A stretch of 64,000 bases of DNA from the NCBI GenBank assembly GCA_041665065.1, contig JBAYJM010000001.1:23116-87115 (forward strand), read 5' to 3'. The notes under the pieces are model-generated. The model did not search any database. It was given only the letters and a program-made list of their open reading frames with translations, and had not been told where the DNA came from. Shown here in pieces: positions 1,458 to 59,081 of the stretch (position 1 is the stretch's first letter; each line of letters begins with the position of its first letter). The position numbers were made by a program, and so were the translations under genes. This DNA comes from Candidatus Buchananbacteria bacterium (GTDB taxonomy: Bacteria > Patescibacteriota > Patescibacteriia > 2-01-FULL-39-33).

Positions 1458-1460
1458 AAT

Positions 1461-1486
1461 GGCCGGTTGGTTGTCCCGGCCGTTTC
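1461..1486. terminator. GC hairpin (GGCCGG-9nt-CCGGCC) between convergent nfo and a minus-strand cassette
   Basis: Perfect 6-bp inverted repeat at 1461-1481, followed by TTT. Candidate bidirectional terminator. Confidence 0.35.
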
Positions 1487-1509
1487 GAGGTGGCGGCCCT
1501 TCGTTTCGT

Positions 1510-1779
1510 TTATGGACCGCACTGAACCTCCCTTACCCCTTCGTCCGTGATGGAATACTCATCGATCACTGGCTGAAATCTGAGCCAGCCCAATGCGATC
1601 AGGGATTCCAGATCAGGCTGAGTCCAGTTTGTGACGACTTCTCCACGGTCACTGCTTCCCCGGTGGTAGCAGTTAATTGCTTCGTCAGCAGTGATCCAGG
1701 TGAACCCCTCGAATTCGAATTCCTCATACAATCTAGAGATGAGCTGAATATCTCTCTCCGTGGCTACAACGTTACTCAT
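1510..1779 (-). CDS. Hypothetical small protein (GC-rich cassette, gene 2 of 2)
   Basis: ORF in a region of about 50-55% GC. Internal ATG (MSNVVATERDIQ...) is preceded by a GGGAG Shine-Dalgarno site. No recognisable family. Confidence 0.45.
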   Translation of the reverse strand: MSNVVATERDIQLISRLYEEFEFEGFTWITADEAINCYHRGSSDRGEVVTNWTQPDLESLIALGWLRFQPVIDEYSITDEGVREVQCGP

Positions 1780-1829
1780 TGTTGCGCTCCCCATCGGTTG
1801 AACCGCTACTTCACCTTGCAATCCGCTTC

Positions 1830-2087
1830 TTACTTTTTTCTTGTCACTTTAAGCCTTATTGGCTCAGAGACAATCTCTAGGTCCCCCTCCTTTTCAACTA
1901 CCGCCCAAATATCAGAGCCGTCTTTCTGACAGTGGATTGTGAATGGGTACAGGCTTTCATTGAAGTGGGGCGGTCCCCAGTTTATGAGTACCGCATTTTC
2001 TATACGCGTTTTACCTCCTCGTCTGGCGGTGATGTTTACCCCGCTTTTAGGGGTAAGTTCATGTTTCTGCTCCCCGCTTCTAATCAT
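1830..2087 (-). CDS. Hypothetical small protein (GC-rich cassette, gene 1 of 2)
   Basis: 85 aa ORF. A strong GGAGGG Shine-Dalgarno site sits 6 nt upstream of the ATG (reverse complement of 2088-2101). GC-rich, unlike its neighbours. Confidence 0.5.
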   Translation of the reverse strand: MIRSGEQKHELTPKSGVNITARRGGKTRIENAVLINWGPPHFNESLYPFTIHCQKDGSDIWAVVEKEGDLEIVSEPIRLKVTRKK

Positions 2088-2132
2088 TGGTCTCCCTCCT
2101 TAATATCAAAGTATAGTCTTATTAGTAATTAA

Positions 2133-2645
2133 ATCAAGTATATAAAAATCGCTATTATTTCAGATTCACATGATAATGTTTCAAATATTGAAAAGTTTTT
2201 GAATTGGGTTGGAAATAATAATATAGAGACAATTATTCATTGCGGTGATTTATCGACGCCGTCTGTCTTGCAAAATGAATTTGGGCCAAAATTCAAGGGG
2301 CAATTTCACTTTGTTCATGGCAATGTTGCCGATAGGGACGTGGACGAAGAAATGGCCGATGAATTTGAAAATTTAATTTGTCACGGGGATATTGGAAAAT
2401 TAGTGATAGAGGGGCAGAAACTCGCTTTCTGCCATCATCCTGACCTAGCAAGGGATTTGGCAAAGACAGGCGAATATGACTTGATTTTTTGCGGTCATAC
2501 GCATAGGCCATGGATGGAGACATTGGATAATGGCACGCAAATAATTAACCCCGGCACATTGGCAGGCCTTTTTAACAAGGCAACGTTTGCAGTTTATGAC
2601 ACCAAGACAAAAAATTTGGAGTTAAAAATTTTAGAAACATTATGA
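2133..2645 (+). CDS. YfcE/MJ0936-like metallophosphoesterase (start codon unclear)
   Basis: Encodes GDLSTP, GNVADRD and GHTHRPW. The track ORF begins at TTG 2199, but the frame is open back to 2133 and encodes IAIISDSHDN, the conserved N-terminal D-x-H motif. No canonical ATG/GTG lies upstream, so the start may be non-canonical. Confidence 0.6.
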   Translation: MKYIKIAIISDSHDNVSNIEKFLNWVGNNNIETIIHCGDLSTPSVLQNEFGPKFKGQFHFVHGNVADRDVDEEMADEFENLICHGDIGKLVIEGQKLAFCHHPDLARDLAKTGEYDLIFCGHTHRPWMETLDNGTQIINPGTLAGLFNKATFAVYDTKTKNLELKILETL

Positions 2646-2866
2646 GGCAGATTTTAGTCCAGGCAAAACCCAATTCATCAAAGGTGGAGGTCGAAAAAAT
2701 TACTGATCAAGTATATAAAGTCAGATTAACGGCGCCACCGGTTGATGGCAAAGCAAATGACCAACTTATTAAGGTTTTGGCTCAATATTTTGATGTTAGT
2801 AAGAGCAATATCGCCATAAAAGCTGGAAAAAACGCTAAAACCAAGGTGGTGATAATTTATGGATAA
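2642..2866 (+). CDS. YggU/DUF167 family protein (UPF0235)
   Basis: 74 aa with the characteristic VDGKAND motif. Overlaps the preceding stop by 4 nt. Confidence 0.7.
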   Translation: MRQILVQAKPNSSKVEVEKITDQVYKVRLTAPPVDGKANDQLIKVLAQYFDVSKSNIAIKAGKNAKTKVVIIYG

Positions 2867-2995
2867 GTTGGTTATAACTTAATTGAAAATAAACCATAAA
2901 TCATATATAATTCCTTATGCTGAAGGGAAGTTTTTGGTATTTTGTGTAATTTTGGCCAAAGATTATGAAATGCAGATTATTGTTCAGTTTGTAGC

Positions 2996-6255: not shown

Positions 6256-6327
6256 GCGGCCATCGTCTAACGGTTAGGACGCCAGGTTTTCATCCTGGTA
6301 ATCGGGGTTCGATTCCCCGTGGCCGTA
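6256..6327 (+). tRNA. tRNA-Glu (anticodon UUC)
   Basis: Cloverleaf: acceptor GCGGCCA/TGGCCGT, D-arm GTCTAACGGTTAGGAC, anticodon stem CCAGG/CCTGG with loop TTTTCAT (anticodon TTC), T-arm CGGGGTTCGATTCCCCG. CCA is not encoded. Confidence 0.85.
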
Positions 6328-6342
6328 CTACTATTTTCAAAA

Positions 6343-7337: not shown

Positions 7338-7370
7338 TTTAAAAAACCGTAACAATCCTTTGTTACGGTT
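7338..7370 (-). terminator. Intrinsic terminator AACCGTAACAA-tcct-TTGTTACGGTT
   Basis: 11-bp perfect stem directly after the stop of the minus-strand gene. A run of six U follows on the minus strand. Confidence 0.6.
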
Positions 7371-8671
7371 TAATCCTCCAGGGTGGGTAGTTCGATTCCA
7401 GCCAAAAGGTCCTCTATATCCTCGTGGTCCCTCCTCGCACTTCCACGAGATTTTCTGTCGTTGTCGTCAGCAGAGCGTGTAGCCAGTATTTTGTCGATTG
7501 CCGAGTCAAAGTTAAACTTGTCAATCTTAGTGGCGTCTATGCTGCGGAGTACCTCTAGGACATTGCGTTGCATGAACGCATCGGGCAAGCTCAGCGTATC
7601 CCATCCAAAGTAAAACCCATATCGGCGCACTGAGCTTATAAGTTGGGTGAAGCTGAGAGTATGGCCAAGGTCTTTGATGATAGCTTCGATAAGTGAGCGA
7701 AAGTCCTCAACCGATTGAGGAGGTCGCGATGGACCTTCATGCAGAGCCCTCCAAACTCCACGCCTCACTTTGCCGAACCGCCTATCATTTGGATGAGTTA
7801 GGTGACAGCATACGTCGTTTTTCAACCCTTCTTTGTTTTTGGTCTGGTCAACGACATATCCACTGCTTGGATCAATAATTGCATTGCAAAGTTCATCATA
7901 CGTCCAGCCAGCAATTATCCTTTGCGCTCTCATTATTGTGTAGAGAGCATCGCGTTGATGGGGGGTGTGTTTCGGCCTCTTATATTCGCTTCGTTTTTTT
8001 GTCACCTTTAGACGAAGCTTCTTGGGAGTTGGCAGTTCCGCGCCGCTTCTCAGTCCCCAACGAGTATTCCGTGTTGGAATGTGGCCAGTGGCGTCCGGTA
8101 CTTTAACAAATAGTTCTTCGTTCCTGGCAACAACATTCCAGACGTCAATTCGTAGCTGTTTCTCGTCGATTTCTGGTTCATTGAAACTCTGATGGTTGCG
8201 GACTCTCTCCATAATCTCTCCAAGAACCAGAGGCCCCTCTTGAAGAATGTCAAAAATGATCGCGCGAAGAGCAAATCTGCCAACCATAATATGCCTATCA
8301 ACCGGCTTCCTTTTCCTTTCCAGTGTTTTTTGGAGCATTGGATCGGCGGCCGTAAAACGGACGTACCAAAGCCCATGACGTTGTCGGAATATGTGGGTTC
8401 TGGAATTCAGCACCAGATCGTGCAGGAGTCTGACCAGTTTTTCGTGGCTTAATCCTGAGGGGATTTTCCTGTCCCGGCGCAAAGCCATGATAAGTTCTGT
8501 AATCGTCATGGCTTTTTGTGATAGCAAATGAATTACCGCCTTTGTTTTTGTGCCGAGATCCGGACGAAGTGAGTCTATGACTTGTTGAGCGGACAGTATG
8601 GTGCCAGGCGCAAGGCCCAATTTTCTCATGCCCCTCTCGGGGCCTGTTTTTTGACCCCTAGATTTGGACAT
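7370..8671 (-). CDS. Hypothetical basic protein with multiple winged-helix-like segments (GC-rich island)
   Basis: Long ORF at about 50% GC, against about 33% for its neighbours. Likely start MSKSRGQKTGPERG, with an aaaggaaaa ribosome-binding site upstream. Several HTH/winged-helix-like stretches (AVIHLLSQKAMTITELIMAL; RFALRAIIFDILQEGPLVLGEIMERV). No integrase motifs recognised. Confidence 0.5.
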   Translation of the reverse strand: MSKSRGQKTGPERGMRKLGLAPGTILSAQQVIDSLRPDLGTKTKAVIHLLSQKAMTITELIMALRRDRKIPSGLSHEKLVRLLHDLVLNSRTHIFRQRHGLWYVRFTAADPMLQKTLERKRKPVDRHIMVGRFALRAIIFDILQEGPLVLGEIMERVRNHQSFNEPEIDEKQLRIDVWNVVARNEELFVKVPDATGHIPTRNTRWGLRSGAELPTPKKLRLKVTKKRSEYKRPKHTPHQRDALYTIMRAQRIIAGWTYDELCNAIIDPSSGYVVDQTKNKEGLKNDVCCHLTHPNDRRFGKVRRGVWRALHEGPSRPPQSVEDFRSLIEAIIKDLGHTLSFTQLISSVRRYGFYFGWDTLSLPDAFMQRNVLEVLRSIDATKIDKFNFDSAIDKILATRSADDNDRKSRGSARRDHEDIEDLLAGIELPTLED

Positions 8672-8812
8672 GGCAATTTTCCTTTGTTGGTCGCTATTGG
8701 TTAAAGGTACTTTAAGCATTATATTATTATATTAGCATTAGTCAAAGGTTGCTGGTTGAGTTATTAAAAATAAGAGCAGGATTTTTGTTAATTACTACTA
8801 GTTTTTTAAGAA

Positions 8813-9624: not shown

Positions 9625-9653
9625 TTGACAAAGCTAGAATAATATATTATAAT
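9625..9653 (+). promoter_or_regulatory. Perfect consensus promoter TTGACA-17-TATAAT
   Basis: TTGACA at 9625-9630, spacer aagctagaataatatat (17 nt), then TATAAT. Confidence 0.5.
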
Positions 9654-9699
9654 GCACAATTGTACATAGTGATTGGTGTAACTAACAAAGGGGGTGCAT

Positions 9700-9954
9700 A
9701 TGCCCATTGTGCCGATAAAGAGAGGAATCCCACAGAGTGTGAAGGGACGAATGGAATTTGTCCTTGATCGCTTAAGATGGATCGGCTGGTCCGTGAATGT
9801 TATCGGACTAGTTCGAAACATCGGGTGGGATACAAAGCTGCCCTATATGGAGCTTGAGCCGATTGTCAAAGTGGCTCTCAAAGGACTTTGTAGGGCGGGT
9901 TTTATCGAGGTGGTAAAAAACGATCATCGGCTGATCGTTCCTGCCAAGTCGTAA
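9700..9954 (+). CDS. Hypothetical 84-aa protein in a stand-alone cassette (moderately GC-rich)
   Basis: ATG preceded by an AAAGGGGG Shine-Dalgarno site and followed by a hairpin and T-run at about 9963-9990. No family recognised. Confidence 0.45.
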   Translation: MPIVPIKRGIPQSVKGRMEFVLDRLRWIGWSVNVIGLVRNIGWDTKLPYMELEPIVKVALKGLCRAGFIEVVKNDHRLIVPAKS

Positions 9955-10018
9955 CAAAAGCGTCGAGAGAAGATCTTGGCGCTGTTTTATTTTAAATATT
10001 TTTTTGTTGGATAATAGT

Positions 10019-11782
10019 TTAAATTACTACTCCCATCTGTTCTCGCCAAAGCGCAGAATAAAGTCCGCCTAGGTTTTTCAGCTCATCATTTTTTCCAACT
10101 TCAATTATTTTCCCTTTTTCCAAAACATAAATTTTATCGGCATGGGAAATCGTTGATAGGCGATGGGCGACTAGGATAGTTATCATTTTTGAAGAAGCTT
10201 TATCCAAGCTTTTTATTGTATCTGAAATTTCTTTTTCAGTGATAGAATCCAAACTGCTGGTTGCTTCATCAAAAATTAGAAGTGAAGGCTTGCGCAGGAG
10301 CGCTCTGGCGATTGCCAGTCTTTGGCGTTCACCGCCGGAAAGTTTCAGGCCTCCTTCGCCGATAATTGTATCAAGTCCTTTTCCGCCTCGTTGCATAATC
10401 TGAGAAACAGAGGCCGCCTCAAGCGCTTCAAGACAATCTCCATCACTTGCGCTTGGTTTGGCAAAAAGCAAGTTATCTCTAATTGATCCAGCAAATAACT
10501 GAGTTTCTTGGGAGACTAATCCGATTTTGTTCCGAAGATCATTATAATCAATTTTTTTAGAATCAATGCCATTAAAAGTCAGCTTTCCAGCTTGAGGTTG
10601 ATATAATCCGAGGATAAGTTTTACCAAAGTCGTTTTGCCGGATCCTGATGGTCCGACAAAAGCAACTGTTTCTCCTGGTGTTATTTTTAGAGAAGCTTCC
10701 TTTATGCTTGCCTCATTGCCTGATACATAAGTGAAGGTAATATTTTCAAAATCAATATTTAAATCATCGTCTAGTTTAATGGGATTTGTTGGCTTAGCCT
10801 GCGAAGGCATCTTTAGGATAGTATCTAATTGCTCCATGCTAGCTTTGGCCTCTTGGTATTGCGAAGATAATGCGCCCAATTCTCCGAGCGGTCCGAAAAT
10901 AAAAAATAGATAAAAGAAGAGGCTGAAAAATTCACCGAGCGTAATGCTTCTAGTATAAATAAGCCAAAGCATCAAAAGCATTATTAGCGCGCGCGAGGCA
11001 TTTATGGCTGTGCCTTGGATAAAACTCAAAGTCCTGACCAATCGTATTTTGCGCAGTTCTAATTTTAAAATATCATTATTTACTTCATTTAATCTTTTAA
11101 TTTCTTGGTTTTCGAGTCCAAGACTTTTAACCAACTCAACATTGCGAAGTGTTTCTGTTGTTGATCCTGCCAAGGCGGTCATTTGGGCGTTGATGTTTTT
11201 TTGAGCTTGCTTTACTTTTCCGCTAATAAAAAATATCGCCGCTCCAAGTGTCGGGGTTAAAATTAAAAAAGCCAAACCAATGGTCCAATTGACCCAGGAA
11301 GCGTATATTAGTACGAACAGTAATCCGACAATTGATAGAAATAAACTGCCGATCATGCCGGCAATCAAAGTCTGGCTGTCTAGCCTTGCCTTTTGCAGTT
11401 TTTGTAGAATCTCGCCGGATTTTTGATCTTCAAAATTTTGATAAGGCAAAGAAAAGGCATGAGCCACGCTATCGGCATAAAGTTTGGTCCCCAGTCTTTG
11501 GGTTATGACGTTTACATAGTAATCCTGGAAGTTTTTGGCGATTCTGGAAACTAGCGCCACGCCGACTGATAAGGCTAGTAAAAATAAAACCCCGCTAATA
11601 AAATCATTCCTTGAAAGAGTAAAGGCCTTATTGATATAGTTATCAACTATCAGTCTAAAAACCTGCGGATCAAGCAGAGAAAAAATCTGATTAATGGTGG
11701 CCAAAATCAAAGCAAAAATCAGCAGTGATTTATAGTTATTTAAATATTTCCAAATTAATTTCATATAATAACATTTTAACAT
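10019..11782 (-). CDS. ABC exporter, fused permease/ATPase (MsbA/ABCB-type)
   Basis: 587 aa with six N-terminal TM helices. Walker A GPSGSGKTT, signature LSGGERQRLAIARAL, Walker B LLIFDEATSSLD. Confidence 0.85.
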   Translation of the reverse strand: MLKCYYMKLIWKYLNNYKSLLIFALILATINQIFSLLDPQVFRLIVDNYINKAFTLSRNDFISGVLFLLALSVGVALVSRIAKNFQDYYVNVITQRLGTKLYADSVAHAFSLPYQNFEDQKSGEILQKLQKARLDSQTLIAGMIGSLFLSIVGLLFVLIYASWVNWTIGLAFLILTPTLGAAIFFISGKVKQAQKNINAQMTALAGSTTETLRNVELVKSLGLENQEIKRLNEVNNDILKLELRKIRLVRTLSFIQGTAINASRALIMLLMLWLIYTRSITLGEFFSLFFYLFFIFGPLGELGALSSQYQEAKASMEQLDTILKMPSQAKPTNPIKLDDDLNIDFENITFTYVSGNEASIKEASLKITPGETVAFVGPSGSGKTTLVKLILGLYQPQAGKLTFNGIDSKKIDYNDLRNKIGLVSQETQLFAGSIRDNLLFAKPSASDGDCLEALEAASVSQIMQRGGKGLDTIIGEGGLKLSGGERQRLAIARALLRKPSLLIFDEATSSLDSITEKEISDTIKSLDKASSKMITILVAHRLSTISHADKIYVLEKGKIIEVGKNDELKNLGGLYSALWREQMGVVI

Positions 11783-13050: not shown

Positions 13051-13079
13051 TTTTAAACAAAAAAAATTGCCGAAACGCG
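13051..13079 (-). terminator. Intrinsic terminator GCCGAAACG-12nt-CGTTTCGGC
   Basis: 9-bp stem with a run of eight U on the minus strand, downstream of the minus-strand gene 13118-13843. Confidence 0.55.
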
Positions 13080-13117
13080 TGTGAGTGCACGTTTCGGCGA
13101 GGGTTGGTGAGCAAATC

Positions 13118-13843
13118 TTAGGCCGATTGCCTATCCATGATTTGAATCAGCGCGTGACCCTTGGGGTCAACGCGTTTGATGACAAGGATCTTGGGACCCG
13201 CAGGGAGAATATTCCAGTACGTTTCCGCGATCTCTCGGTGGTCGCCAATGACGGGTACGAGAAGCGGGCCTCGAAACGAGTGAGTCTGGCCGGTGTCCTT
13301 TGTGCTTGTCGTGACACAGTAGCCAAAGCCGGACTCCATGTTGGGATATTGTTCTTTGCGTCTGTGGCCGTCATCGGTCTCCGTAGTTACGGAAATACCG
13401 GCATGAGGGGCCTCACCATTAAAGAAGCAGTAAGCGCTTACGCGTGGCGCATCGACCAATCCAAATCTGCGTTGATTGGAGTCTGCCTCACCAAATGCGG
13501 CATCGACAAATGTCGCATCGATGGGCGTGCCTCCTTGAAGTTTGGCGTAGTATGCAGCCCTGAGATGGTCTATGACGCTTTCGGTTTGGCCATTCGTCAC
13601 CACGTGGGTGTGGTAGTAACCGGCCATGGCGAGATAAGAAACGGGGCAGGGAATTCCTGGATTAATGGGAACAACCCGCACACTTCCATCGCAATCGTCA
13701 ATGGCAAAGGTGCAATTTGAATCTCCCATAATCCAGGCGACTTGATACAATACTTCACGGAAGAACGCCACCACTATCCCGTTGCTGGGGCTTTCACAAA
13801 GTGAAACAAAATTGTCTTGGGCCTCAACTCTTTCGGCGCTCAT
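13118..13843 (-). CDS. Hypothetical protein, GC-rich island
   Basis: 241 aa. GGGGGAA Shine-Dalgarno site upstream of the ATG, and a minus-oriented terminator downstream. The overlapping plus-strand ORF 13085-13720 is rejected because it starts inside the terminator hairpin. No confident family; His/Asp-rich segments (GDSNC, YYHTHVV) could hint at a metal-dependent hydrolase. Confidence 0.45.
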   Translation of the reverse strand: MSAERVEAQDNFVSLCESPSNGIVVAFFREVLYQVAWIMGDSNCTFAIDDCDGSVRVVPINPGIPCPVSYLAMAGYYHTHVVTNGQTESVIDHLRAAYYAKLQGGTPIDATFVDAAFGEADSNQRRFGLVDAPRVSAYCFFNGEAPHAGISVTTETDDGHRRKEQYPNMESGFGYCVTTSTKDTGQTHSFRGPLLVPVIGDHREIAETYWNILPAGPKILVIKRVDPKGHALIQIMDRQSA

Positions 13844-14001
13844 GATTATGAGATTCCCCCTAGTGTAAATTGTTTGATGAAGCCAAGATACGCTCTTGCT
13901 TCTTTGTTAAGTGTGTTTTATTTTTTAATTTTTGTCAATTATAATTTTTATCTAATTTTATTGTTATTTTTAGGTGGAGATAGGATTATTATTTAAATAA
14001 A

Positions 14002-14040
14002 ATAAAAAAACCGCCAAGTCATAGCCGTGCTATGTGGCGG
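14002..14040 (-). terminator. Intrinsic terminator (CCGCCA...TGGCGG stem + U-run on minus strand)
   Basis: Reverse complement reads cccgccacatagcacggctatgacttggcggttttttt, directly downstream of gene 14045-14440. Confidence 0.45.
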
Positions 14041-14044
14041 GTTA

Positions 14045-14440
14045 TTAGGTGTGTACAGGTTTGCGCTTCGTCTCTCTTATTTCGGTAATTACCCCTGCTT
14101 GCTCCAGGGCTATAATATAGTCATTGAGCCGTTTGTCGCTACCATAGATCCGAAAGAGCAGACGGTCGTGATAGCCAACTTCAAGACATAGATTGTTTTG
14201 GAAAACTGATGTTAAGCCAGCGCCTGCAAATTCTCCATGGTCTATTCCGAAAACCAGGATCGCTTCCTTCCACCTAGTATAGTCTGACCACAGATTTACT
14301 AAGGTTCTTACCAGGGCAACCCGATCCTCAAGTGTAGGCGCTTCAAATAGCGCGGCGTTAATCCGATCGATCGGATCAACCGGTTTTTCGGCTCTCCCAA
14401 CAAGGAGGGCAGAAATGAAATCCAGTACAGTGTGTGACAT
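14045..14440 (-). CDS. Hypothetical protein, GC-rich island
   Basis: 131 aa. Very strong AAAGGAGGGAG Shine-Dalgarno site 6 nt upstream of the ATG. Own terminator. Confidence 0.5.
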   Translation of the reverse strand: MSHTVLDFISALLVGRAEKPVDPIDRINAALFEAPTLEDRVALVRTLVNLWSDYTRWKEAILVFGIDHGEFAGAGLTSVFQNNLCLEVGYHDRLLFRIYGSDKRLNDYIIALEQAGVITEIRETKRKPVHT

Positions 14441-14581
14441 TTGGACTCCCTCCTTTGGGTTTTTGGCCTTTGAAATTAGTACGCAGGGTTAATTTAACAG
14501 ATATGAGAGCTATTTTCAAGTAGAGCCTAAACTTCATGATTTCTATAGCCTTCATTGATTATAATCATTTCTGGTGGTATT

Positions 14582-15148
14582 ATGACAGATATGTCAGAAA
14601 TTAATGATTATGAATTAATAGGCAAATATTTGAAAGGCGATGAAAAATCGCTAGAATTGCTGATCCAAAAATATCTCAAGCCGATATATTATTTTGTTTA
14701 TGGCTATATAAAAAATGACAAAGAAGCTGAGGATATTACTCAGGAAGTTTTTGTCCGCGCTTGGAAAAAGTTGAAACAATTCAAAAAAGAGAACAATTTT
14801 AATTCGTGGATTTTTGCCATAGCCAAAAATGCGTCAATTGACTTTTTGCGGAAAAGGAAAGATATTCCAATCTCAGCATTTGATAATGATGGCGGAAATG
14901 CCCTAATTGACAATTTATGTGATTTAAATCCAGCGACCGATAAGTTGATGGAAAATTATAGCGATCAAAAAAGCATAGGCGAGGCAGTTGAGATGCTGGC
15001 GCCTGATTACCAAACCGTTTTTAAAATGCATTATGAAAAGCAGTTGAATTTTAGAGAAATTGCTGAGATTTTAGGCGATTCAATAAATACCATAAAAAGT
15101 CGGCATAGAAGGGCTGTTTTGATTTTAAAAAATATTCTTAGTATTTAG
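14582..15148 (+). CDS. RNA polymerase sigma factor, ECF (sigma-70 family group 4)
   Basis: Region 2 (FVRAWKKLKQF...NFNSWIFAIAKNASIDFLRKRK) and region 4 HTH (LNFREIAEILGDSINTIKSRHRRA). ATG at 14582 after GGTGGT. Confidence 0.8.
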   Translation: MTDMSEINDYELIGKYLKGDEKSLELLIQKYLKPIYYFVYGYIKNDKEAEDITQEVFVRAWKKLKQFKKENNFNSWIFAIAKNASIDFLRKRKDIPISAFDNDGGNALIDNLCDLNPATDKLMENYSDQKSIGEAVEMLAPDYQTVFKMHYEKQLNFREIAEILGDSINTIKSRHRRAVLILKNILSI

Positions 15149-15656: not shown

Positions 15657-15658
15657 GT

Positions 15659-16171: not shown

Positions 16172-18013
16172 ATGTTTCAAAAGATTCTGAAGTTTTTCCC
16201 CCGCCATAAATTTGTTACTGCTCTGGTAATAATTATTATTGTGGCAATAGCCGGTTTTGCCATTCATTCAATGGGGGGCGGTGCCGGACAAACCGTCTAT
16301 GTCTTATCAACCGTAGAAAGGGGAACCATCGTTTCATCAATTTCTGGAAGCGGGCAGGTATCAGCTTCAAATCAAATTGATATTACATCAAAAGCGGCCA
16401 GCACTATTACCGATTTAAAAGTCCAAAAAGGCCAAGAAGTAAAAGAAGGCGACATTTTAGTTTCGCTTGACGCCAAGGACGCCGTCTCTTCTGTGCGTGA
16501 TGCTCAGATTAGTTTGGATAATGCCAATCTTTCATTACAAAAGTTAAAAAATGGATCGACTGAATCGGAAATAACCGCGTCAAAACTCCAGCTTGATTCT
16601 GCACAAAAAAATTATGATCAGGCAAAGGGTGATTTAGAAGTTGCTAAGACTAAGGCTGATACTGATTTAAATAATACTTATGATGACGCTAAGAGCGCAT
16701 TGCAAAGCGTTTATAGCAGTCTTGATGATAGTTTAAACAGGCAGTTGGATGGTATTTTTATTAATAATAATACTGATAATGCAAAGCTGTCGTTTTTAAC
16801 CGCTGATTCATCGGCTGAATACGATACTTACAATTTGAAAATTAAAGCCAAAAATCTATTATCTGAGATGAAAGATTTTTTACAGAATTATCCTTCCGAT
16901 CATTTGACAATAGATAATAAGCTGTCAGAATTTTCTAGCGATTTGACCATGATGCAAAATTTCTTTTCGCGTTTAAGCGATGCAGTCAATGGAGCGATTG
17001 TAACAAATAGCGTATCGCAATCCACAATCAGTGGCTATAAGAGCACGGTTGCTTCGTTAAAATCAACTGGCAATTCTTCAGTAAACAGCATTAATACTCA
17101 AATAAGAAATATTGCCAATCAAAAAACCACTAATGTAAATAATATCAGATCGGCTGAAAATAAAATTGCTGATGCCTCCACCTCGCTTACAAAAGCCGGC
17201 AATGATTTAAAAGATCTCCAAGTCGGTTCAGATCCGCTTGATATCAGGGCGCAAGAGTTGCAAGTCGCCAAGGCTCAGATAAATCTTTCAAATGCCCAAG
17301 AAAAATTAGCAGATTATACAATCAAAGCTTCGTTTGATGGAGTGATTGCTGAGGTTCCAATAAAGAAAGGCGATAATGTTACGGCCAACGGCGCTATTTT
17401 AAGCCTGATAACAAAACAACAAATTGCAGAAATCTCACTTAACGAAGTTGATGCCGCGTCGGTTAAAGTCGGCCAATTGGTGACACTTACTCTTGATGCG
17501 ATTGAGGGCCTGAGCATAACCGGTAAAGTTGCTGATGTGGATTCGCTGGGAACCGTTAGTCAGGGCGTTGTTTCTTATAATACTAAAGTCACTTTTGATA
17601 CCCAAGATAGCAGAGTTAAGCCGGGCATGAGCATTTCAGCTTCAATAATTACCAATACAAGTCAGAATGTTTTGACAGTTCCAAATAGCGCCATCAAAAA
17701 TTCCAATGGCAGTACTTATGTCGAGGTTCTTGATGAATCAGGATTGACAACAGTTGCTACCGGGGTAACTTCTAAAACAGCTCCAAGGCAACAGCAAGTA
17801 GTCGTCGGCTTGTCAGACGATAGTTATACGGAGATAGTATCCGGATTGGATGAGGGTGCAAAAGTAGTTTCCAAAACAATTGCCGCTACTGCCTCCAAGT
17901 CAAATTCCTCTGCTCCAAGCCTGCTTCAAAATTTGGGCGGTTCAAACAGGGCCGGATCGGCTGGAGCAAGTACTGGCAACAGAACCTTTCAGGGTGGTGG
18001 GCCTGGAATGTAA
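16172..18013 (+). CDS. HlyD/MacA-type periplasmic adaptor (membrane fusion protein)
   Basis: 613 aa with an N-terminal TM helix, long coiled-coil region, biotinyl-lipoyl-like and beta-barrel segments. Immediately upstream of the MacB ATPase and permease genes. Confidence 0.8.
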   Translation: MFQKILKFFPRHKFVTALVIIIIVAIAGFAIHSMGGGAGQTVYVLSTVERGTIVSSISGSGQVSASNQIDITSKAASTITDLKVQKGQEVKEGDILVSLDAKDAVSSVRDAQISLDNANLSLQKLKNGSTESEITASKLQLDSAQKNYDQAKGDLEVAKTKADTDLNNTYDDAKSALQSVYSSLDDSLNRQLDGIFINNNTDNAKLSFLTADSSAEYDTYNLKIKAKNLLSEMKDFLQNYPSDHLTIDNKLSEFSSDLTMMQNFFSRLSDAVNGAIVTNSVSQSTISGYKSTVASLKSTGNSSVNSINTQIRNIANQKTTNVNNIRSAENKIADASTSLTKAGNDLKDLQVGSDPLDIRAQELQVAKAQINLSNAQEKLADYTIKASFDGVIAEVPIKKGDNVTANGAILSLITKQQIAEISLNEVDAASVKVGQLVTLTLDAIEGLSITGKVADVDSLGTVSQGVVSYNTKVTFDTQDSRVKPGMSISASIITNTSQNVLTVPNSAIKNSNGSTYVEVLDESGLTTVATGVTSKTAPRQQQVVVGLSDDSYTEIVSGLDEGAKVVSKTIAATASKSNSSAPSLLQNLGGSNRAGSAGASTGNRTFQGGGPGM

Positions 18014-18718: not shown

Positions 18719-19939
18719 ATGAAAATAGCCGACGTCCTAGAAGAAACATATTCAGCGCTGTCAGCCAATAAAGTAAGATCAGGATTAACTATCCTGGGCA
18801 TTGTTATTGGAATCAGTTCTGTGATCGCGATGCTATCAATCGGCTTCGGAGCGCAGAGCTCAATTGAGTCCAGCATTCAGTCGATCGGATCAAATCTTAT
18901 TATGGTTATGCCTGGAGCCCAGCGCGGGCCGGGAGTGACTGTTAGTGCCGGCAGAGGTTCGGCCAAAACTTTAACAATGGAAGATGCTGATGCCATAAAA
19001 GAATTGGATTTAGTAAAAGCAGTAGCCCCCGAAGTAAGCGGAAGATATCAAATTGCCGCTAAGGGTCAAAATACCAATACCCAAGTTATTGGAACGGTTT
19101 CTGCCTATTCGTCGGTTAAAAATATTGAGGTCGAATCCGGAAATTTTTTAAGCGATCAAAACATTGCCAGTGCCTCCAAAGTAGCCGTTATCGGGCCGAC
19201 TGTCCGTGATGACGTTTTTGGAACAGATGCTGATGCCATCGGACAAACAATCCGTATAGATAAAACTGATTTTAAGGTTATTGGTATGACTAAGGCTAAA
19301 GGCGGTTCCGGATTTAATAATACGGATAATATGGTCTATGTGCCAATTACTACCGCGCAAAGACTTCTTACTGGCAATAAATATGTAACAACCATCAACG
19401 TCGAGGCTCAAGATGCAAATTCTATGACTTCAGTTCAGGAATCAATAACCTCGTTGTTGTTAACAAGACACAATATTTCTGATGCGACTAACGCGGATTT
19501 TAGCACTCTTAATCAAGCAGATATTATTGCCACGGCATCCAGCATTACCGGAATTTTAACGGCCCTACTGGGCTCGGTGGCGGGTATCTCATTAATTGTC
19601 GGCGGGATAGGGATTATGAATATGATGCTTACTACAGTCACGGAAAGAACCAAAGAGATCGGACTTAGAAAGGCTATCGGAGCTAAAGCAAAAGATATTA
19701 GCATTCAATTCTTAATTGAGGCCATTGCTTTAACAGTAATTGGCGGTCTGGTGGGAATCGTTTTGGGTTGGGCAATAGCTTTTGGCATAACATATTTTGG
19801 CGTTATGCAAACTAAAGTATCCTGGTATTCGATTTTGCTGTCTTTTGGTGTTTCGGCAATAATTGGGATTGTCTTTGGTTATTATCCGGCAAGGCGAGCA
19901 GCAAAATTAAATCCGATACAAGCCTTAAGATTTGAATAA
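18719..19939 (+). CDS. ABC transporter permease, MacB/FtsX type
   Basis: 406 aa. N-terminal TM helix, large periplasmic domain, and a C-terminal FtsX-like four-TM bundle (LTTVTERTKEIGLRKAIGAKAKDI). Confidence 0.85.
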   Translation: MKIADVLEETYSALSANKVRSGLTILGIVIGISSVIAMLSIGFGAQSSIESSIQSIGSNLIMVMPGAQRGPGVTVSAGRGSAKTLTMEDADAIKELDLVKAVAPEVSGRYQIAAKGQNTNTQVIGTVSAYSSVKNIEVESGNFLSDQNIASASKVAVIGPTVRDDVFGTDADAIGQTIRIDKTDFKVIGMTKAKGGSGFNNTDNMVYVPITTAQRLLTGNKYVTTINVEAQDANSMTSVQESITSLLLTRHNISDATNADFSTLNQADIIATASSITGILTALLGSVAGISLIVGGIGIMNMMLTTVTERTKEIGLRKAIGAKAKDISIQFLIEAIALTVIGGLVGIVLGWAIAFGITYFGVMQTKVSWYSILLSFGVSAIIGIVFGYYPARRAAKLNPIQALRFE

Positions 19940-20760: not shown

Positions 20761-20841
20761 GCAAAAAAAATTGCCTCTCCCTCCGGTGTCGCGTGGAGGA
20801 AGAGGACTTTGGATTATGGCCGTCGCAATTATAGGGGGGGG

Positions 20842-21090: not shown

Positions 21091-21296
21091 TTACATTCCT
21101 TCCTTGTTTCCCCGTTATGCTGCCTGGAACAATAATGCCTGACATACATATTAACACAATTATACCTTAGTGTCAATAAGTTTTATCTTTAAGCTATCAT
21201 TTTTTATCTTAATTAACGTAGAATTATTTATAAAATCTTCACAATTTTATATTTTTGGGCTATAATTATTTAGTTGATAAATAAAACTATAAAATT

Positions 21297-26668: not shown

Positions 26669-26682
26669 AAAGTAAGCCTCCT

Positions 26683-45115: not shown

Positions 45116-46471
45116 ATGATAGCATCCATCACGAGGCCACTTAATGCTCAACTTGAAATCACTGACAAATGCAATCTTCGGTGCCGTCACTGTTACCATC
45201 TTGACTCCGATTGTGAAAGACATAGTCAAGACCTATCCGATGATCAGGTGATGGAGCTGGTCGAGAAGCTTATAGCTTCTAAAGTGTTCTCGGTTGTTGT
45301 GACTGGTGGCGAGCCGCTCGTACGCAAAGGACTAACCAAGAAGATTATCCGTCGTCTTAAACAAGAAGACATCGATACCTCCCTTAATACAAACCTGTTA
45401 CTTCTAGACAGGGTAAGTCTTGAGGATCTCCTGGCCTGTAAGCTCGACGGTATGCTTGTCTCTTGCACAACGTCCGATTCCGAACTTTACGACCTTATGA
45501 CTCGGGGTGGTAATTATCACCAATTCGAGACAAAGGTTAAAATGCTAGTCACATTGGGACAGCACTTCGCCGTAAATATGGTCGTCAACCGCCATAACAT
45601 CGGGCATATCCGAAAAACAGCAACACGAATGCGAGATATCGGCGTTAAGGTATTTGGCGCAACGCCGATGGGTCTTAACGCCACCAATCCCGACCTTGAG
45701 AACCTTCTTGAAGTAGACCAGGTCAAGTTGCTTGTTGAAGATCTTATCTGGGCACAGGAGCATCTTAACCTCAAAACCGACATATTTGAAGCATTGCCAA
45801 AGTGCGTCTTCCCGGCATGGGTTCGATCAAGGGACTATGCCTTTCTCAACCGCAAGTGCCAGGCTGGCAAAACTATTGCGTCCATTGCCAATAATGGTGA
45901 CGTCCGAGCTTGTTCCCATAATCCCGATGTCTATGGCAACTTGTTTAACGAGTCGATCGAAAGCATCTGGTCGAAAATGGGAGCATGGCGTGATCAGCGC
46001 ACCGCGCCTGGTCGCTGTCTCGGCTGCAAGCTTGTTGGCAGCTGTTACGGAGGATGTAGGATTACCGCCCGCACGTTCACTGGAGATCATCAAGGCGAAG
46101 ATCCGTGGATGGACAAACCACTCTCCGTCAATGATATGCCCCAACGAAAAGTCAATGGTTTGTCCCTTGGACTGGACACAACACTAACTTTCGCCGACAA
46201 ATTACATTGGCGTCAAGAAACCGAAGAAGACTACCTTATGTCGTCAACCCGGGGCAACCGGAATATTACAATGGTTAACAGACCACTTCTGGAATTTGCC
46301 CAGGAATTAAGACGCCTATCGCCAATATCACTAGAGCATCTTGCCAGGGTTGCCGGTTGCAATCCTGGTGATGCCGAGTTTCAAAGAGTCCTTACGTTGC
46401 TTGTAACTAGGGGGTTTGTATACCCACAACAACCAGGAAGAAAGGAGGAACGCTATGTCTCGACCATTTAA
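45116..46471 (+). CDS. Radical SAM enzyme with C-terminal SPASM/twitch auxiliary cluster domain (RiPP maturase-like)
   Basis: 451 aa at about 50% GC. CNLRCRHC = CxxxCxxC at the N-terminus. C-terminal Cys clusters CQAGKT...ACSHN and GRCLGCKLVGSCYGGCRI. GGAAGGAAAA Shine-Dalgarno site. Confidence 0.85.
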   Translation: MIASITRPLNAQLEITDKCNLRCRHCYHLDSDCERHSQDLSDDQVMELVEKLIASKVFSVVVTGGEPLVRKGLTKKIIRRLKQEDIDTSLNTNLLLLDRVSLEDLLACKLDGMLVSCTTSDSELYDLMTRGGNYHQFETKVKMLVTLGQHFAVNMVVNRHNIGHIRKTATRMRDIGVKVFGATPMGLNATNPDLENLLEVDQVKLLVEDLIWAQEHLNLKTDIFEALPKCVFPAWVRSRDYAFLNRKCQAGKTIASIANNGDVRACSHNPDVYGNLFNESIESIWSKMGAWRDQRTAPGRCLGCKLVGSCYGGCRITARTFTGDHQGEDPWMDKPLSVNDMPQRKVNGLSLGLDTTLTFADKLHWRQETEEDYLMSSTRGNRNITMVNRPLLEFAQELRRLSPISLEHLARVAGCNPGDAEFQRVLTLLVTRGFVYPQQPGRKEERYVSTI

Positions 46472-46595
46472 TTTCGCCGCAATGCAAGTTAAGCCGGTAA
46501 ACACCGTCGACAACTGCTTTGACTGCGACTGTGGCGATGGCGGTGGCGATGGCGGCTGCGTCTCGTGCGACAGTTGCGATTGCGACAGCGAATAG
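46455..46595 (+). CDS. Cys/Asp-rich precursor peptide (46 aa) overlapping the 3' end of the rSAM gene
   Basis: Not in the ORF track because it is shorter than 60 aa. AGGAGG sits 6 nt upstream of the ATG. Translation is MSRPFNFAAMQVKPVNTVDNCFDCDCGDGGGDGGCVSCDSCDCDSE: seven Cys, mostly as CD or CxD pairs. Followed by the terminator GGACCTA-loop-TAGGTCC + T-run at 46619-46652. Confidence 0.6.
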   Translation: MSRPFNFAAMQVKPVNTVDNCFDCDCGDGGGDGGCVSCDSCDCDSE

Positions 46596-46618
46596 TTTCG
46601 AATTTTACCCCTCTTTGC

Positions 46619-46652
46619 GGACCTATCCTTGCGGTAGGTCCATTATTTTTAT
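46619..46652 (+). terminator. Intrinsic terminator GGACCTA-tccttgcgg-TAGGTCC + ATTATTTTTAT
   Basis: 7-bp perfect stem directly after the precursor peptide ORF. Confidence 0.55.
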
Positions 46653-46663: not shown

Positions 46664-47317
46664 ATGTCTCTTAATTTTGAATACAACCTCAAAAAAGACG
46701 CCGAGAATCATCGGGCCATAGCTCACGCTAAATATATTGGCAAACCATCAAAAGTGATTGAATATTTTCAAGTAAAATTTGGGGGTGATTTCAGTGATGA
46801 TAAACTCAAACGATTTATAAAAGGACTTATTGATTATAATAAAATTGATATTGATCAAAAAGTCTTAGATTTTAAATCAACTTGGCAACAGGTAGAATTA
46901 GAATTTGAATTACGAATGAAAAACCTATTTGGTGATATTTTATCATTAGATATGTTTACCGCATATATTACAACAAATGATCGCTGTACGTATTCAACTA
47001 GAGATAATAGTTTTTTTCTTACTGTATTTAGTAAGCAACCAAGACTTGTCATTAGTCACGAACTATTTCATCTCTTTACTTGCCAAATCTTTAGCAAAGA
47101 ACTTAATGCAATGCCACAAAAGGCTGCCTATGACACAAAAGAATCACTCACCGAATTACTTAACTTTACATGCAAAGATATAATAGGAGCTCCAGATCTT
47201 GGATATGACCAACATAGAGAGTTGCGTAAGTTAATTTGTGAACTATGGCCAAAGAACAACAATCTAAAAAAAATATTTAATAAAGTTGCTAATGCAGCAC
47301 AATCTAAACACAACTAA
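46664..47317 (+). CDS. Putative zinc metallopeptidase (HExxH motif), unknown family
   Basis: 217 aa, AT-rich (native-like). ISHELFHLF contains HELFH. Confidence 0.5.
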   Translation: MSLNFEYNLKKDAENHRAIAHAKYIGKPSKVIEYFQVKFGGDFSDDKLKRFIKGLIDYNKIDIDQKVLDFKSTWQQVELEFELRMKNLFGDILSLDMFTAYITTNDRCTYSTRDNSFFLTVFSKQPRLVISHELFHLFTCQIFSKELNAMPQKAAYDTKESLTELLNFTCKDIIGAPDLGYDQHRELRKLICELWPKNNNLKKIFNKVANAAQSKHN

Positions 47318-57144: not shown

Positions 57145-57216
57145 TATATTTATTAATAAGTTTTAATTTTGAGGCAGGCAAACGGTTTGCTTGCCTCAAT
57201 AAAACACGGATTGCGG

Positions 57217-57816
57217 TTAGAGTTCGAGAACCCAATAACTTCTTTGATGCTCGTTTGCATCAATAACATCGAGTTCTACAAACCCCAACCCTTTGTAAAG
57301 GGCGCGAGCCGGTTCTGCTCGGAGGTCGGTTCGCAGAAGAATGGTCTCGTGGCCGGTTTTGATGGCCCATTCCAAAAGGCATTCGCTTAGTTCTCGACCA
57401 GCTCCTTTGAGTCGGCAGTTGGAATCAACACCGAGTTCATCAATGTAAAACACTTCGCCATTTTCGAAAAATCGATCCATCTGCGAAGTTCCCGAGATGT
57501 TTTGCATGTCTTCCATGCTGACACGATAGCCCCAAGTGAAGCCGATGATGGCGTCGTTTGACTTGGGATCGGTTGGAAGTGCAAGGAATCCTCGGGATTG
57601 TCCGCGCGCGAGCTCTTCTTTGAGCTCTTGCAATACAATTTCAGTCGTCCAGAAATCCTCATTCCACGGCGGTTCTCTCCAGATTTCGCAATAGAGCGAG
57701 GCGCACCCTTCCAAGACGGAAAGAGGCGTTTGATCCAGGCTTATCACCTCGATTCGATATCCTTTTTGCATGTCACGATTCCTTATTGTTACATGCTTGG
57801 TGTTTGGGTTTTTCAT
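57217..57816 (-). CDS. GNAT family N-acetyltransferase, GC-rich island
   Basis: 199 aa at about 52% GC. Acetyl-CoA motif A IDELGVDSNCRLKGAGRELSECLLEWA. Confidence 0.65.
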   Translation of the reverse strand: MKNPNTKHVTIRNRDMQKGYRIEVISLDQTPLSVLEGCASLYCEIWREPPWNEDFWTTEIVLQELKEELARGQSRGFLALPTDPKSNDAIIGFTWGYRVSMEDMQNISGTSQMDRFFENGEVFYIDELGVDSNCRLKGAGRELSECLLEWAIKTGHETILLRTDLRAEPARALYKGLGFVELDVIDANEHQRSYWVLEL

Positions 57817-57821
57817 ATAAA

Positions 57822-57852
57822 AAACCCCTTCCCACTCGGGAAGGGGTTGAGT
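57822..57852 (-). terminator. Intrinsic terminator CCCCTTCCC-gagt-GGGAAGGGG + U-run (minus strand)
   Basis: 9-bp GC stem. On the minus strand it follows the trpR-like gene and is followed by TTTTTTAT. Confidence 0.55.
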
Positions 57853-57868
57853 TTATATTTTAAAAATA

Positions 57869-58189
57869 TCAACGCAGCTCTTTCCCGATTGAGGAAGAGC
57901 TATAATGATTTATTCTTTTTGAAATTAAATTATATCCGCCGGTTCCGTTATTTAACCAAAGCGCGACACGGCTGACAGTAGTTGTGCTGACTTTTAATTT
58001 TTCGGCAATCTCACGATAGGGCATTTTCTTCTCCAAAAGCTTCACTATTTCCCAGCGCTCGCTCATTTCCTTGATTTCTTCAACCGTACAGAGGTCACGA
58101 AAAAATAACTCGCATTCTTTTGTGGTTTTTAATGATAGGATGGCTTCAAAAAGCCTGTTAGTTTGTTTGTTAAATTTAAATTGTTTCAT
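57869..58189 (-). CDS. TrpR-like DNA-binding protein (YerC/YecD family)
   Basis: 106 aa. LCTVEEIKEMSERWEIVKLL...YREIAEKLKVSTTTVSRVALWLNNGTGGY matches the YerC/YecD Trp-repressor-like family. Confidence 0.65.
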   Translation of the reverse strand: MKQFKFNKQTNRLFEAILSLKTTKECELFFRDLCTVEEIKEMSERWEIVKLLEKKMPYREIAEKLKVSTTTVSRVALWLNNGTGGYNLISKRINHYSSSSIGKELR

Positions 58190-58382
58190 ATCTGTATCAC
58201 TGTATTACTATACTAACACAGAATAAATACAATGTCAAGAATATAATTTATTAATTAAAAAAACCGCCTAAAGGCGGGTAATGTGTGTTTGTTATTTTAT
58301 TACTCTCAAAAGCAACAATAGGATTATTACTTTAATTGAGTGGAGAAGGCAAGGGTAGGACTTGTATCTTCTCCGATTTGAA

Positions 58383-58856
58383 CTAAATACCGATGACCTC
58401 CTTGGCTTTGAGCAAGTCGATCATTCTGCGAACTTCTTGCGTGTTGGGCATGCAACCGTAACCATCATGCAGGTTAAAAGCGGCTTCAGCCTCACTCGCA
58501 CGTCCAGCTTTCGCGAAGAGAAACGCTGAAGTGAGGTACAGCTTTTTATGGAACATTTCCTTGGCCATCTCGATGATAGCGTCTGTCTCGACAGGACTGT
58601 CGATTGTTTCCCGGAGTTTGACGTACATCCAGTACCCGAGCAGATCGGCCAACTTATCACATTCCTCAGAAAGCCACGGTCTGCAGTCGGGGGCATTTAA
58701 GTAGAACCAGGCTATGAATTTGGAAACTCCCTGAGCGTCTTTGCGGTCTGCCATATACCGCAAGAGGGATTCGGGGTGACCTGGGTTCTTGGTGAGGCAG
58801 TCATCCCACCGACCAAAGCTCACCAACACATACATGGGCAACCAGCTCATATTCAT
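58383..58856 (-). CDS. Hypothetical protein, GC-rich island
   Basis: Likely start MNMSWLPMYV with a GAGGGA Shine-Dalgarno site. Terminator (aaaccgcctaaaggcggg) at 58255-58285 on the minus strand. No family recognised. Confidence 0.45.
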   Translation of the reverse strand: MNMSWLPMYVLVSFGRWDDCLTKNPGHPESLLRYMADRKDAQGVSKFIAWFYLNAPDCRPWLSEECDKLADLLGYWMYVKLRETIDSPVETDAIIEMAKEMFHKKLYLTSAFLFAKAGRASEAEAAFNLHDGYGCMPNTQEVRRMIDLLKAKEVIGI

Positions 58857-59081
58857 ATTTTTTCCCTCGTAAGGCCAGGCCAAGATTTATTACTTTCATC
58901 CTCAAACTCACAAGAGCCCAGGATTTTTAATGCTTTATGGTACAAATTCTTTGTGAACGTTACTCACATTGAATACATTATTATATCATAGTTAAATCAT
59001 TTTGTCAAATATATTTGCTAAGTTTATTTAAAATAAAATAAAAAAACCGCCCCAGCAAGGGGCGGAAAATTTGATATGAAT

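Follow-up and report, generated by a model that had tools for sequence, protein, structure and literature searches.

GC-rich, Shine-Dalgarno-led gene islands dispersed in the AT-rich chromosome of a Candidatus Buchananbacteria bacterium

We have analyzed a stretch of 64,000 nucleotides (the window) from a contig of a Candidatus Buchananbacteria metagenome-assembled genome (MAG), in which eleven GC-rich loci, here called islands i1 to i11, are scattered over an AT-rich backbone (Table 1). Of ten window proteins queried by exact sequence, nine (ThrRS and eight from the islands) were found on this one contig, with locus tags from WCV92_00130 onward. The backbone genes code for ThrRS, a VanW-like protein, HlyD/ABC/MacB transporters, a histidine kinase, TsaD/TsaE, a T2SSE-type ATPase, a sigma-70 factor, FtsH and ribosomal protein S1. 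This is a chromosome of the candidate phyla radiation (CPR, Patescibacteria) and not a phage, and the original prediction, made from the letters alone, was apt in guessing at an episymbiont-type organism. The window has 37.3% GC overall. A two-state hidden Markov model (HMM) assigned 8,591 bp (13.4% of the window) to a GC-rich state of 51.2% GC, against 35.1% for the remainder, and recovered all the 11 loci that had been predicted, plus four short extra stretches. The latter are parts of conserved genes of the backbone (ABC ATPase, HlyD, MacB and a 573-aa gene), not separate islands. Gene by gene, GC ranged from 0.47 to 0.63 in the islands and from 0.28 to 0.44 in the backbone, and the GC of third codon positions (GC3) from 0.45 to 0.79 and from 0.19 to 0.41, respectively (pooled, 0.54 and 0.32). 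Besides, the dinucleotide distance between islands and backbone, normalised for base composition, was 0.150, when sampling noise was 0.04–0.06 with a maximum of 0.083 and the halves of the island set were only 0.05–0.07 apart from each other. The composition of the window is clearly non-uniform on quantitative analysis, and the dispersed GC-rich loci are borne out by the HMM, the per-gene values and the dinucleotide signature; the 30–35% GC predicted for their flanks was a little low, 30–40% being closer.

The islands look coding, with open reading frames (ORFs) that fill each GC-rich segment and GC1 higher than GC2. Arg and Cys are twice as frequent in their proteins as in those of the backbone, whereas Lys, Ile and Phe are at about half the backbone level. 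As had been predicted, the minus strand is preferred (9 of the 13 island genes, against 11 of 55 in the backbone; Fisher p = 0.001), and at five loci the genes are antisense to both neighbours. No recognisable family had been claimed for most of the products, which holds for eight of the 13 genes in Pfam, PHROGs, PADLOC and NCBIfam. Structural RNAs (GC-rich rRNA or other non-coding RNA) were considered as the source of the high GC and discarded; Rfam and ARAGORN placed no RNA gene in any island, and the one tRNA and the sub-threshold T-box of the window are both outside them.

Islands and backbone also differ in the signals for the initiation of translation. Ten of the 13 island starts pair with the anti-Shine-Dalgarno (anti-SD) sequence at −6 kcal/mol or lower, whereas only two of the 55 backbone starts do so (Mann-Whitney p = 6e-7). 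This is not a side effect of GC content, because only 10.7% of random windows within the islands reached the same energy (binomial p = 4e-8). Of the ribosome-binding sites in the original prediction, then, the strength in the islands and the near-absence in the backbone stood, while the canonical GGAGG type was found complete only in some genes (1830–2087, 14045–14440 and 25982–26668, with AAGGAG at 36992–37429), the remaining SD sites being partial. The site of i10 is ambiguous: it falls within the stem of the terminator that belongs to the gene upstream, and the true start may be at an internal ATG. The scarcity of SD sites in the backbone is found likewise in relatives with 27–48% GC. In six backbone genes a −10-like hexamer was located 4–9 nt before the start, with no clear peak, a weak lead that hints at some leaderless mRNAs.

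Two layouts were found among the islands. In i1–i8 and i11 (class A) a predicted sigma-70 promoter in AT-rich DNA is followed by a 5' leader with the SD site, one gene (two in i1) and a terminator, whereas i9 and i10 (class B) have no strong promoter of their own and are co-oriented with their neighbours. Over the 11 units, six had a match of at least 10/12 to the sigma-70 consensus within 200 nt upstream (12/12 in two), compared with a null expectation of 10%, and the predicted promoters imply leaders of 46–132 nt. The hairpin terminators of the original prediction were recovered, again as predictions, for nine of the 11 units (hairpin energies of −12 to −19 kcal/mol, with a T-run, no more than 44 nt from the stop), and in eight of those nine the GC-rich segment stops at the hairpin.

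Table 1. Islands, their predicted signals and other features of the window (window positions, except in the last row). aa, amino acids.
Feature	Position	Strand	GC-rich segment (HMM)	Description
i1	1461–2099	−	1461–2099	Two small orphan genes; antisense to both neighbours
i1 gene one	1830–2087			85 aa; SD TAAGGAGG
i1 gene two	1510–1779			89 aa; SD GGGGAG; longest ORF to 1821
i1 terminator (predicted)	1461–1503
i2	7346–8745	−	7375–8646	Orphan gene 7370–8671, 433 aa; longest ORF to 8719
i2 promoter (predicted)	8718–8745			TTGACT-16-TATAAT
i2 terminator (predicted)	7346–7369
i3	9625–9983	+	9690–9984	84-aa orphan gene 9700–9954; antisense to both neighbours
i3 promoter (predicted)	9625–9653			12/12 sigma-70; SD AAGGGGGTG
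i3 terminator (predicted)	9959–9983
i4	13069–13967	−	13069–13841	Gene 13118–13843, 241 aa, divergent PurO-like (IMP cyclohydrolase-like, Ntn-hydrolase fold)
i4 terminator (predicted)	13069–13098
i4 promoter-like site	13938–13967
i5	14011–14468	−	14011–14468	Orphan gene 14045–14440, 131 aa; SD AAGGAGG
i5 terminator (predicted)	14011–14040
i6	20774–21176	−	20773–21063	Orphan gene 20842–21090, 82 aa; antisense to both neighbours
i6 promoter (predicted)	21148–21176			TTGACA-17-TAATAT; position derived from offsets
i6 terminator (predicted)	20774–20805
i7	25933–26829	−	25933–26785	Orphan gene 25982–26668, 228 aa, hydrophobic C-terminal segment; SD AGGAGG
i7 leader	26669–26795	−		About 125 nt; three hairpins, each with a GGGAU loop
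i7 promoter (predicted)	26801–26829			Position derived from offsets
i7 terminator (predicted)	25933–25957
i8	36931–37517	+	36931–37518	60% GC; gene 36992–37429, 145 aa; SD AAGGAG
i8 terminator (predicted)	37474–37517
i9	45116–46641	+	45179–46641	rSAM/SPASM maturase gene 45116–46471
i9 precursor gene	46482–46595			37 aa, 7 Cys: MQVKPVNTVDNCFDCDCGDGGGDGGCVSCDSCDCDSE; apparently uncalled as a gene
i9 terminator (predicted)	46619–46641
AT-rich partner of i9	46664–47317	+		217 aa, HExxH, putative leader peptidase; GC 0.31
i10	57217–57816	−	57283–57751	GNAT acetyltransferase, Pfam Acetyltransf_1; true start may be ATG 57771
i11	58383–59008	−	58390–58848	Orphan gene 58383–58856, 157 aa
i11 promoter (predicted)	58980–59008			12/12; position derived from offsets
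Extra HMM stretches	10287–10462; 17453–18006; 18826–18964; 38114–38275			Inside conserved backbone genes
tRNA	6256–6328			The only one in the window; about 1 kb from the nearest island, i2
Block with i7 at its edge	25873–32912			7 kb; i7 and five AT-rich genes
Ribosomal protein S1 gene	35480–36709
TrpR-family gene	57869–58189			Helix-turn-helix protein
T-box leader-like element	62172–62371	−		52.6 bits, under the gathering score of 93; E = 1.2e-8; upstream of an operon ending in ThrRS
GC-rich, SD-led ORFs of relatives	L006 18386–18829; L009 12035–12478; L013 18644–19858; L010 9271–9852

We compared the window with TsaD-anchored loci of ten related genomes (65–75% identity in TsaD). In these loci the order of the backbone was kept and the islands were missing. 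Specifically, i4, i5, i6, i7, i8 and i11 were absent at the equivalent sites, where the flanking genes were 45–406 bp apart; these six are the class A loci that have a comparable site in relatives. Thus i4 was missing at the syntenic site of L006 and i6 upstream of TsaD; the genes at both sides of i8, coding for S1 and RNHCP, were only 131–406 bp apart in four relatives; those flanking the block at 25.9–32.9 kb (a 343-aa gene and FtsH) were separated by 108–229 bp in six; and in L168 ThrRS and TrpR, which are at both sides of i11 in the window, were only about 110 bp apart. Neither class B island follows this pattern of absence, i10 being syntenic in four relatives and the i9 cassette conserved. 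When the island proteins were searched against about 2 Mb of fetched loci, close relatives included, nothing was matched except the known i4 and i9 homologues. A metagenome scan with ThrRS for closer relatives gave nothing above 77% identity.

The association between high GC and SD sites was found again in the relatives. Of their GC-rich outlier ORFs, 12 of 16 paired with the anti-SD at −7 kcal/mol or lower, against 7 of 145 other ORFs, and the pattern therefore belongs to the clade and not to this genome only. Besides, at the hot spots where the window has i6 (upstream of TsaD) and i8 (beside RNHCP), the relatives have GC-rich, SD-led ORFs of their own, unrelated to the islands. A possible homology of the i8 protein to one of them, a 147-aa GC-rich ORF beside RNHCP in L006, was not significant.

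Several independent assemblies cover part of the window. An ENA MEGAHIT contig corresponds to window positions 4045–24440 with two mismatches in 20.4 kb, a Logan contig to 11668–18939 with 100% identity over 7.3 kb, and a JGI contig from another sample (L003) to 13714–14633 at 99.46%. Together they span the junctions of i2–i6, and those of i5 are recovered in all three. In a fourth sample a related organism has a GC-rich GNAT gene that likewise adjoins an AT-rich AstE gene. All the islands are within one contig. For the parts of the window so covered, misassembly is ruled out. L003 departs from the window in five places, four of which cluster in 130 bp of the i4 5' end (13726–13806), with none in i5.

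Island i10 consists of a GNAT acetyltransferase gene, co-oriented with the genes around it, for which no terminator was recovered. The order ThrRS-TrpR-GNAT-AstE was found whole in L168 and partially in L167, L169 and L171. The closest named homologues of the GNAT protein are Patescibacterial, with 41–42% identity, and other matches go up to 74%. Compared with the closest relative, L171, the synonymous divergence (dS) of the GNAT gene was 1.21 with GC3 values of 0.51 in the window and 0.53 in L171, whereas the adjacent AstE gene, with a dS of 1.30, had a GC3 of 0.23 in both. The ranking of relatives by identity was in agreement with those of ThrRS, TrpR and AstE, and to judge from these comparisons the GNAT gene appears to be vertically inherited. 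In a two-state mutation model of our own, with an equilibrium GC3 of about 0.23, about 0.6 synonymous substitutions per site and lineage would be expected to erase some 60–70% of any GC3 excess. The ancestral gene would therefore have needed a GC3 of about 0.9 or higher, which is contradicted by its GC1 and GC2 (0.56 and 0.39). A recent transfer awaiting amelioration fails as an explanation for at least this island. In the pooled islands, GC1, GC2 and GC3 were 0.56, 0.40 and 0.54, values that imply a source with 47.7, 50.4 and 51.0% GC, respectively, and no amelioration lag, with GC3 shifted ahead of GC1 and GC2, was apparent.

The TrpR-family gene is always located directly upstream of the GNAT gene in L167, L168 and L169, and the two might work as regulator and enzyme or as a toxin-antitoxin-like pair. 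The 3' end of this gene and its terminator are 95% identical between the window and L171 (positions 1–102), and the GNAT-AstE stretch (window ~56.8–58.0 kb, L171 228–1195) only 79%, suggesting a recombination breakpoint at the 5' end of the GNAT gene.

The other class B island, i9, codes for a radical S-adenosylmethionine (rSAM) maturase (Pfam Radical_SAM PF04055, 1.7e-21; SPASM PF13186, 1.1e-5) followed by a small Cys-rich precursor and, outside the island, by an AT-rich gene for an HExxH protein. The latter had no Pfam match, and it is 43.5% identical to the product of the gene that follows the rSAM gene in L084. The trio of rSAM, precursor and HExxH genes is kept in three CPR-type contigs (L084, L172 and L173), two of them labelled Komeilibacteria or Patescibacteria. 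Homologous precursor peptides are found downstream of the rSAM gene in the three, with the motif VDNC[FY][DN]CD..DGG, and the CVSCD ending is present in only three of the four peptides. The closest named homologues of the rSAM protein are again Patescibacterial (52–56% identity), and in all four lineages examined the rSAM gene was 8–17 GC points above its protease partner. Asparaginase-like and 199-aa genes upstream of the rSAM gene are also common to L084.

Within class A, i4 could be placed in a fold. We found 103 distant full-length homologues, the best at 33% identity; the i4 sequence itself had no Pfam match, and PF07826 was matched by 25 of the 25 homologues aligned. A profile of the i4 alignment recovered the PurO structures 2NTK and 1KUU (2.5e-13), and the AlphaFold model (predicted local distance difference test, pLDDT, 85) had 1KUU, 2NTM and 2NTK as its top fold matches, with TM-scores of 0.59–0.70. 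By this modelling the i4 product is assigned the PurO fold of the N-terminal nucleophile (Ntn) hydrolases, that of proteins similar to inosine monophosphate (IMP) cyclohydrolase. The YPGRG-type motif at the N-terminus is not found in i4, where the family consensus NxYPGRGIVxG is replaced by ESPSNGIVVAF. In L011, a related Buchananbacteria genome, a PurO-like gene (478–1221) is again a GC-rich outlier (0.57 vs. 0.48), SD-led and near the same transporter cluster, at a different site from i4.

The 433–449 aa protein of i2 retrieved nothing but itself among 5.8 billion protein clusters, a collection in which this population is represented by further assemblies, so that a donor assembled along with it is unlikely. 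A single-sequence AlphaFold model of it was unusable (pLDDT 38), and winged-helix repeats, hinted at by a repeated helix-helix-hairpin pattern, were not counted as evidence. The i8 protein, with a GC3 of 0.79, has a signal-peptide-like N-terminus and is rich in Ala, Thr and Pro. The leader of i7 has a minimum free energy of −49.2 kcal/mol (z = −3.35) and contains GGGATGCC three times, a sequence found nowhere else in the window; the SD site directly adjoins the last hairpin, and by analogy the layout resembles the GGA-loop binding sites of CsrA type. In the block that has i7 at its edge, a phosphoenolpyruvate (PEP)-utilizer mobile domain was found in two genes, one also with a MORC-like HATPase_c_3 domain; there is one separate PPDK_N protein, and two genes had no Pfam match. 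This looks like a split or rearranged PEP-utilising system.

We have also searched for signs of mobile elements and viruses. There were no PHROG matches below E = 0.04, and integrase, capsid and terminase were not found. Defence systems and phage genes were discarded as identities for the islands, PADLOC and PHROGs giving only a generic likeness of the rSAM protein to viperins. In the same way, a viral origin was looked for with IMG/VR peptide-pattern scans (i2, i5 and i7), which are insensitive, and with tblastn against GenBank phages (i2 and i7), both empty. A single repeated mobile element was rejected, with no shared repeats, arms or target duplications found and the island proteins not being paralogous. 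Retro-insertion of foreign transcripts had been suggested by GC-rich DNA that runs approximately from transcription start to terminator; these boundaries are explained otherwise, because promoters and T-runs are AT-rich by nature, and no reverse transcriptase was found near the islands.

The explanation that best covers these data overall, and on balance a probable one, is that the islands are real genes of two kinds in an AT-rich CPR chromosome where SD sites are hardly used. Class A islands are most plausibly moron-like autonomous units, laterally acquired from a pool of about 50% GC. Their sites are variable intergenic spots, their orientation is often opposite to that of the genes around them, and their products are lineage-specific, mostly orphans. 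They would have been gained singly, by lateral transfer and illegitimate insertion, from a pool near its equilibrium at ~50% GC, probably other Patescibacteria, their unsampled mobile elements or viruses. The mRNA of a GC-rich gene would be more structured and might be translated in this cell only when it carries its own SD site, which may be why GC-richness and SD sites travel together. Class B islands are CPR-family genes, resident in conserved CPR neighbourhoods, with a persistent GC excess. Some force would keep them GC-rich, because the GNAT gene still has a GC3 of ~0.5 after saturated divergence, next to a gene at 0.23; the candidates are GC-biased gene conversion (gBGC), selection on codons or mRNA, and repeated recombination with relatives of higher GC.

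A number of observations weigh against this interpretation. The GNAT gene that does not ameliorate, together with the tracking of backbone GC by the islands, makes GC-richness alone no proof of a recent or foreign origin, and some of the class A islands could be old residents. The tracking amounts to 10–19 points above the backbone in eight genomes, a figure that comes partly from the picking of outliers. For class A no donor was identified, and the islands showed no domain of an integrase or transposase, no repeats at their flanks and no duplicated target sites. The shared, rather bland dinucleotide signature fits a single source type and is no proof of it. The promoters and terminators are consensus predictions, and none of the fetched loci contained a 16S rRNA gene to provide the 3' end for the anti-SD. 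Finally, the absences in relatives refer to genomes that are only 65–75% identical in TsaD.

An unlikely alternative, although the one that survives best, is that all the islands are native, long-resident genes, with GC-rich codons and SD initiation maintained by selection on mRNA stability or on the control of translation, or by gBGC at hot spots of recombination, and no transfer from outside. The apparently vertical, non-ameliorating GNAT gene, the GC excess of the rSAM gene in four lineages, the roughly constant offset in eight genomes, the clade-wide link between GC and SD, and the mosaic of TrpR and GNAT (95% vs. 79%), which points to local recombination, are all in line with it. It does not account for the six loci missing at the syntenic sites of relatives, for the island proteins that mostly have no homologue there, or for different unrelated ORFs at the same hot spots across genomes. 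An offset of 15–20 GC points is also much larger than the effects attributed to gBGC in bacteria. A bolder reading, which we put forward as a rather unlikely speculation, would have in Buchananbacteria, and perhaps in other CPR, two tiers of genes, an AT-rich core without SD sites and a GC-rich, leadered and SD-dependent accessory set, with a GC content that selection or gBGC would actively keep up, instead of a trace of transfer that fades. If true, composition and initiation mode would be a separate expression channel, for example for condition-specific translation of accessory or host-interaction genes.

The original prediction favoured repeated acquisition from a high-GC donor, for instance the host if the organism is an episymbiont; taken as a recent process, this would leave islands that have not yet ameliorated. 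The gain of genes has held up, with six of the 11 loci missing in relatives and a foreign composition and dinucleotide signature, and the SD sites of the islands are typical of ordinary bacteria; the high-GC donor or host has not, and we consider this reading improbable. The codon positions imply a source near 50% GC and no amelioration lag, and GNAT has kept its GC3 of ~0.5 through a dS of ~1.2 in two lineages. Best matches by taxonomy had been proposed as a check: rSAM and GNAT have Patescibacterial proteins as closest named homologues and are both syntenic across CPR, i2 has no homologue anywhere, though the database holds the other assemblies of this population, and the nearest homologue of i4 that was found is in a genome of 67% GC, but with only 29–33% identity.

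Even less probable, in our view, is an origin of the islands in integrated phages, plasmids or integron-like elements, as what is left of them or as their cargo. Their moron-like anatomy, the insertion between genes that are adjacent in relatives and the abundance of orphans, typical of mobile gene pools, would be expected of such cargo. None of it came with phage hallmark genes in PHROGs, with relatives of i2, i5 or i7 in IMG/VR or GenBank phages, or with attC-like or other shared repeats, and the units are scattered singly among housekeeping genes (ThrRS, TsaD, FtsH, S1). The chimeric assembly or binning artefact that the original prediction gave as its other explanation has nothing in its favour but the composition jumps themselves and practically no chance of being right, given the contigs that reproduce window 4045–24440 at 99.5–100% across the i2–i6 junctions, the GNAT-AstE pair of the fourth sample, boundaries that are at every island a functional signal (SD site or terminator), and the single contig that carries them all.

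In the reading of Lawrence and Ochman type, compositionally atypical genes are taken as horizontally acquired. Acquired DNA is usually AT-richer than the host genome. Like the genomic islets described under that view, the islands of the window are deviant in GC, GC3 and dinucleotides, patchy in distribution and rich in orphans. They differ in being GC-richer than the genome, in the lack of mobility genes, repeats or amelioration signature, in an initiation mode different from that of the backbone, and in that one of them is old and apparently vertical; for none of them did we identify a donor, a lineage in which the homologues are closer than in the relatives of the recipient. Horizontal transfer in Patescibacteria has been estimated at up to 13% of the genome length, mostly within the group (PMC12455944); the share here is 13.4%, and the affinity, where traceable, is likewise Patescibacterial. 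Integron cassettes, on the other hand, have attC sites and form promoterless arrays beside an integrase, whereas here the units are dispersed, have their own predicted promoters and show no shared inverted-repeat family and no integrase.

A parallel for class A is found in phage morons, reportedly described (Juhala and coworkers, in 2000) as autonomous promoter-gene-terminator units of deviant composition between conserved genes. The likeness includes the predicted promoter and terminator, the single gene, the composition, and the location of i8 (S1/RNHCP), i11 (ThrRS/TrpR) and the i7 block (343-aa gene/FtsH) between genes that are adjacent in relatives. Morons sit in phage or prophage genomes, though, and these islands in a cellular chromosome among housekeeping genes, with no phage genes nearby. 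In class B, i9 resembles the rSAM/SPASM clusters (ranthipeptide/SCIFF-like, sactipeptide) of ribosomally synthesised and post-translationally modified peptides (RiPPs) in its combination of a SPASM-rSAM enzyme, a short Cys-rich precursor and a putative peptidase, but it falls far below the cut-offs of all curated rSAM families (SCIFF/ranthipeptide, sactipeptide, PqqE and others), the best NCBIfam score being 95 bits against 400. As far as sequence can tell, the precursor motif and the HExxH partner define a CPR-restricted, three-gene RiPP-like variant.

Genomes poor in SD sites in which GeneMarkS-2 finds a set of atypical genes have been described before (PMC6028130), and here too the native genes are largely SD-less and accompanied by an atypical minority; in our case this minority is specifically SD-bearing and GC-rich, and the split recurs in relatives. 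Deviant composition is the standard shorthand for recent transfer, and this window illustrates both the use and the limit of it in a streamlined CPR genome: most of the islands do act as gained genes would, and yet GC cannot date an island here, because the foreign look of one of them has outlasted saturated divergence. Islands of this kind might be thrown out by gene callers and by filters for contamination. The split between SD-poor and SD-bearing genes offers a route to how translation starts in CPR and how new genes become expressible. Compared with the systems above, the novelty lies in the direction in which GC is shifted, in the divided use of SD sites and in the demonstrated persistence of the composition.

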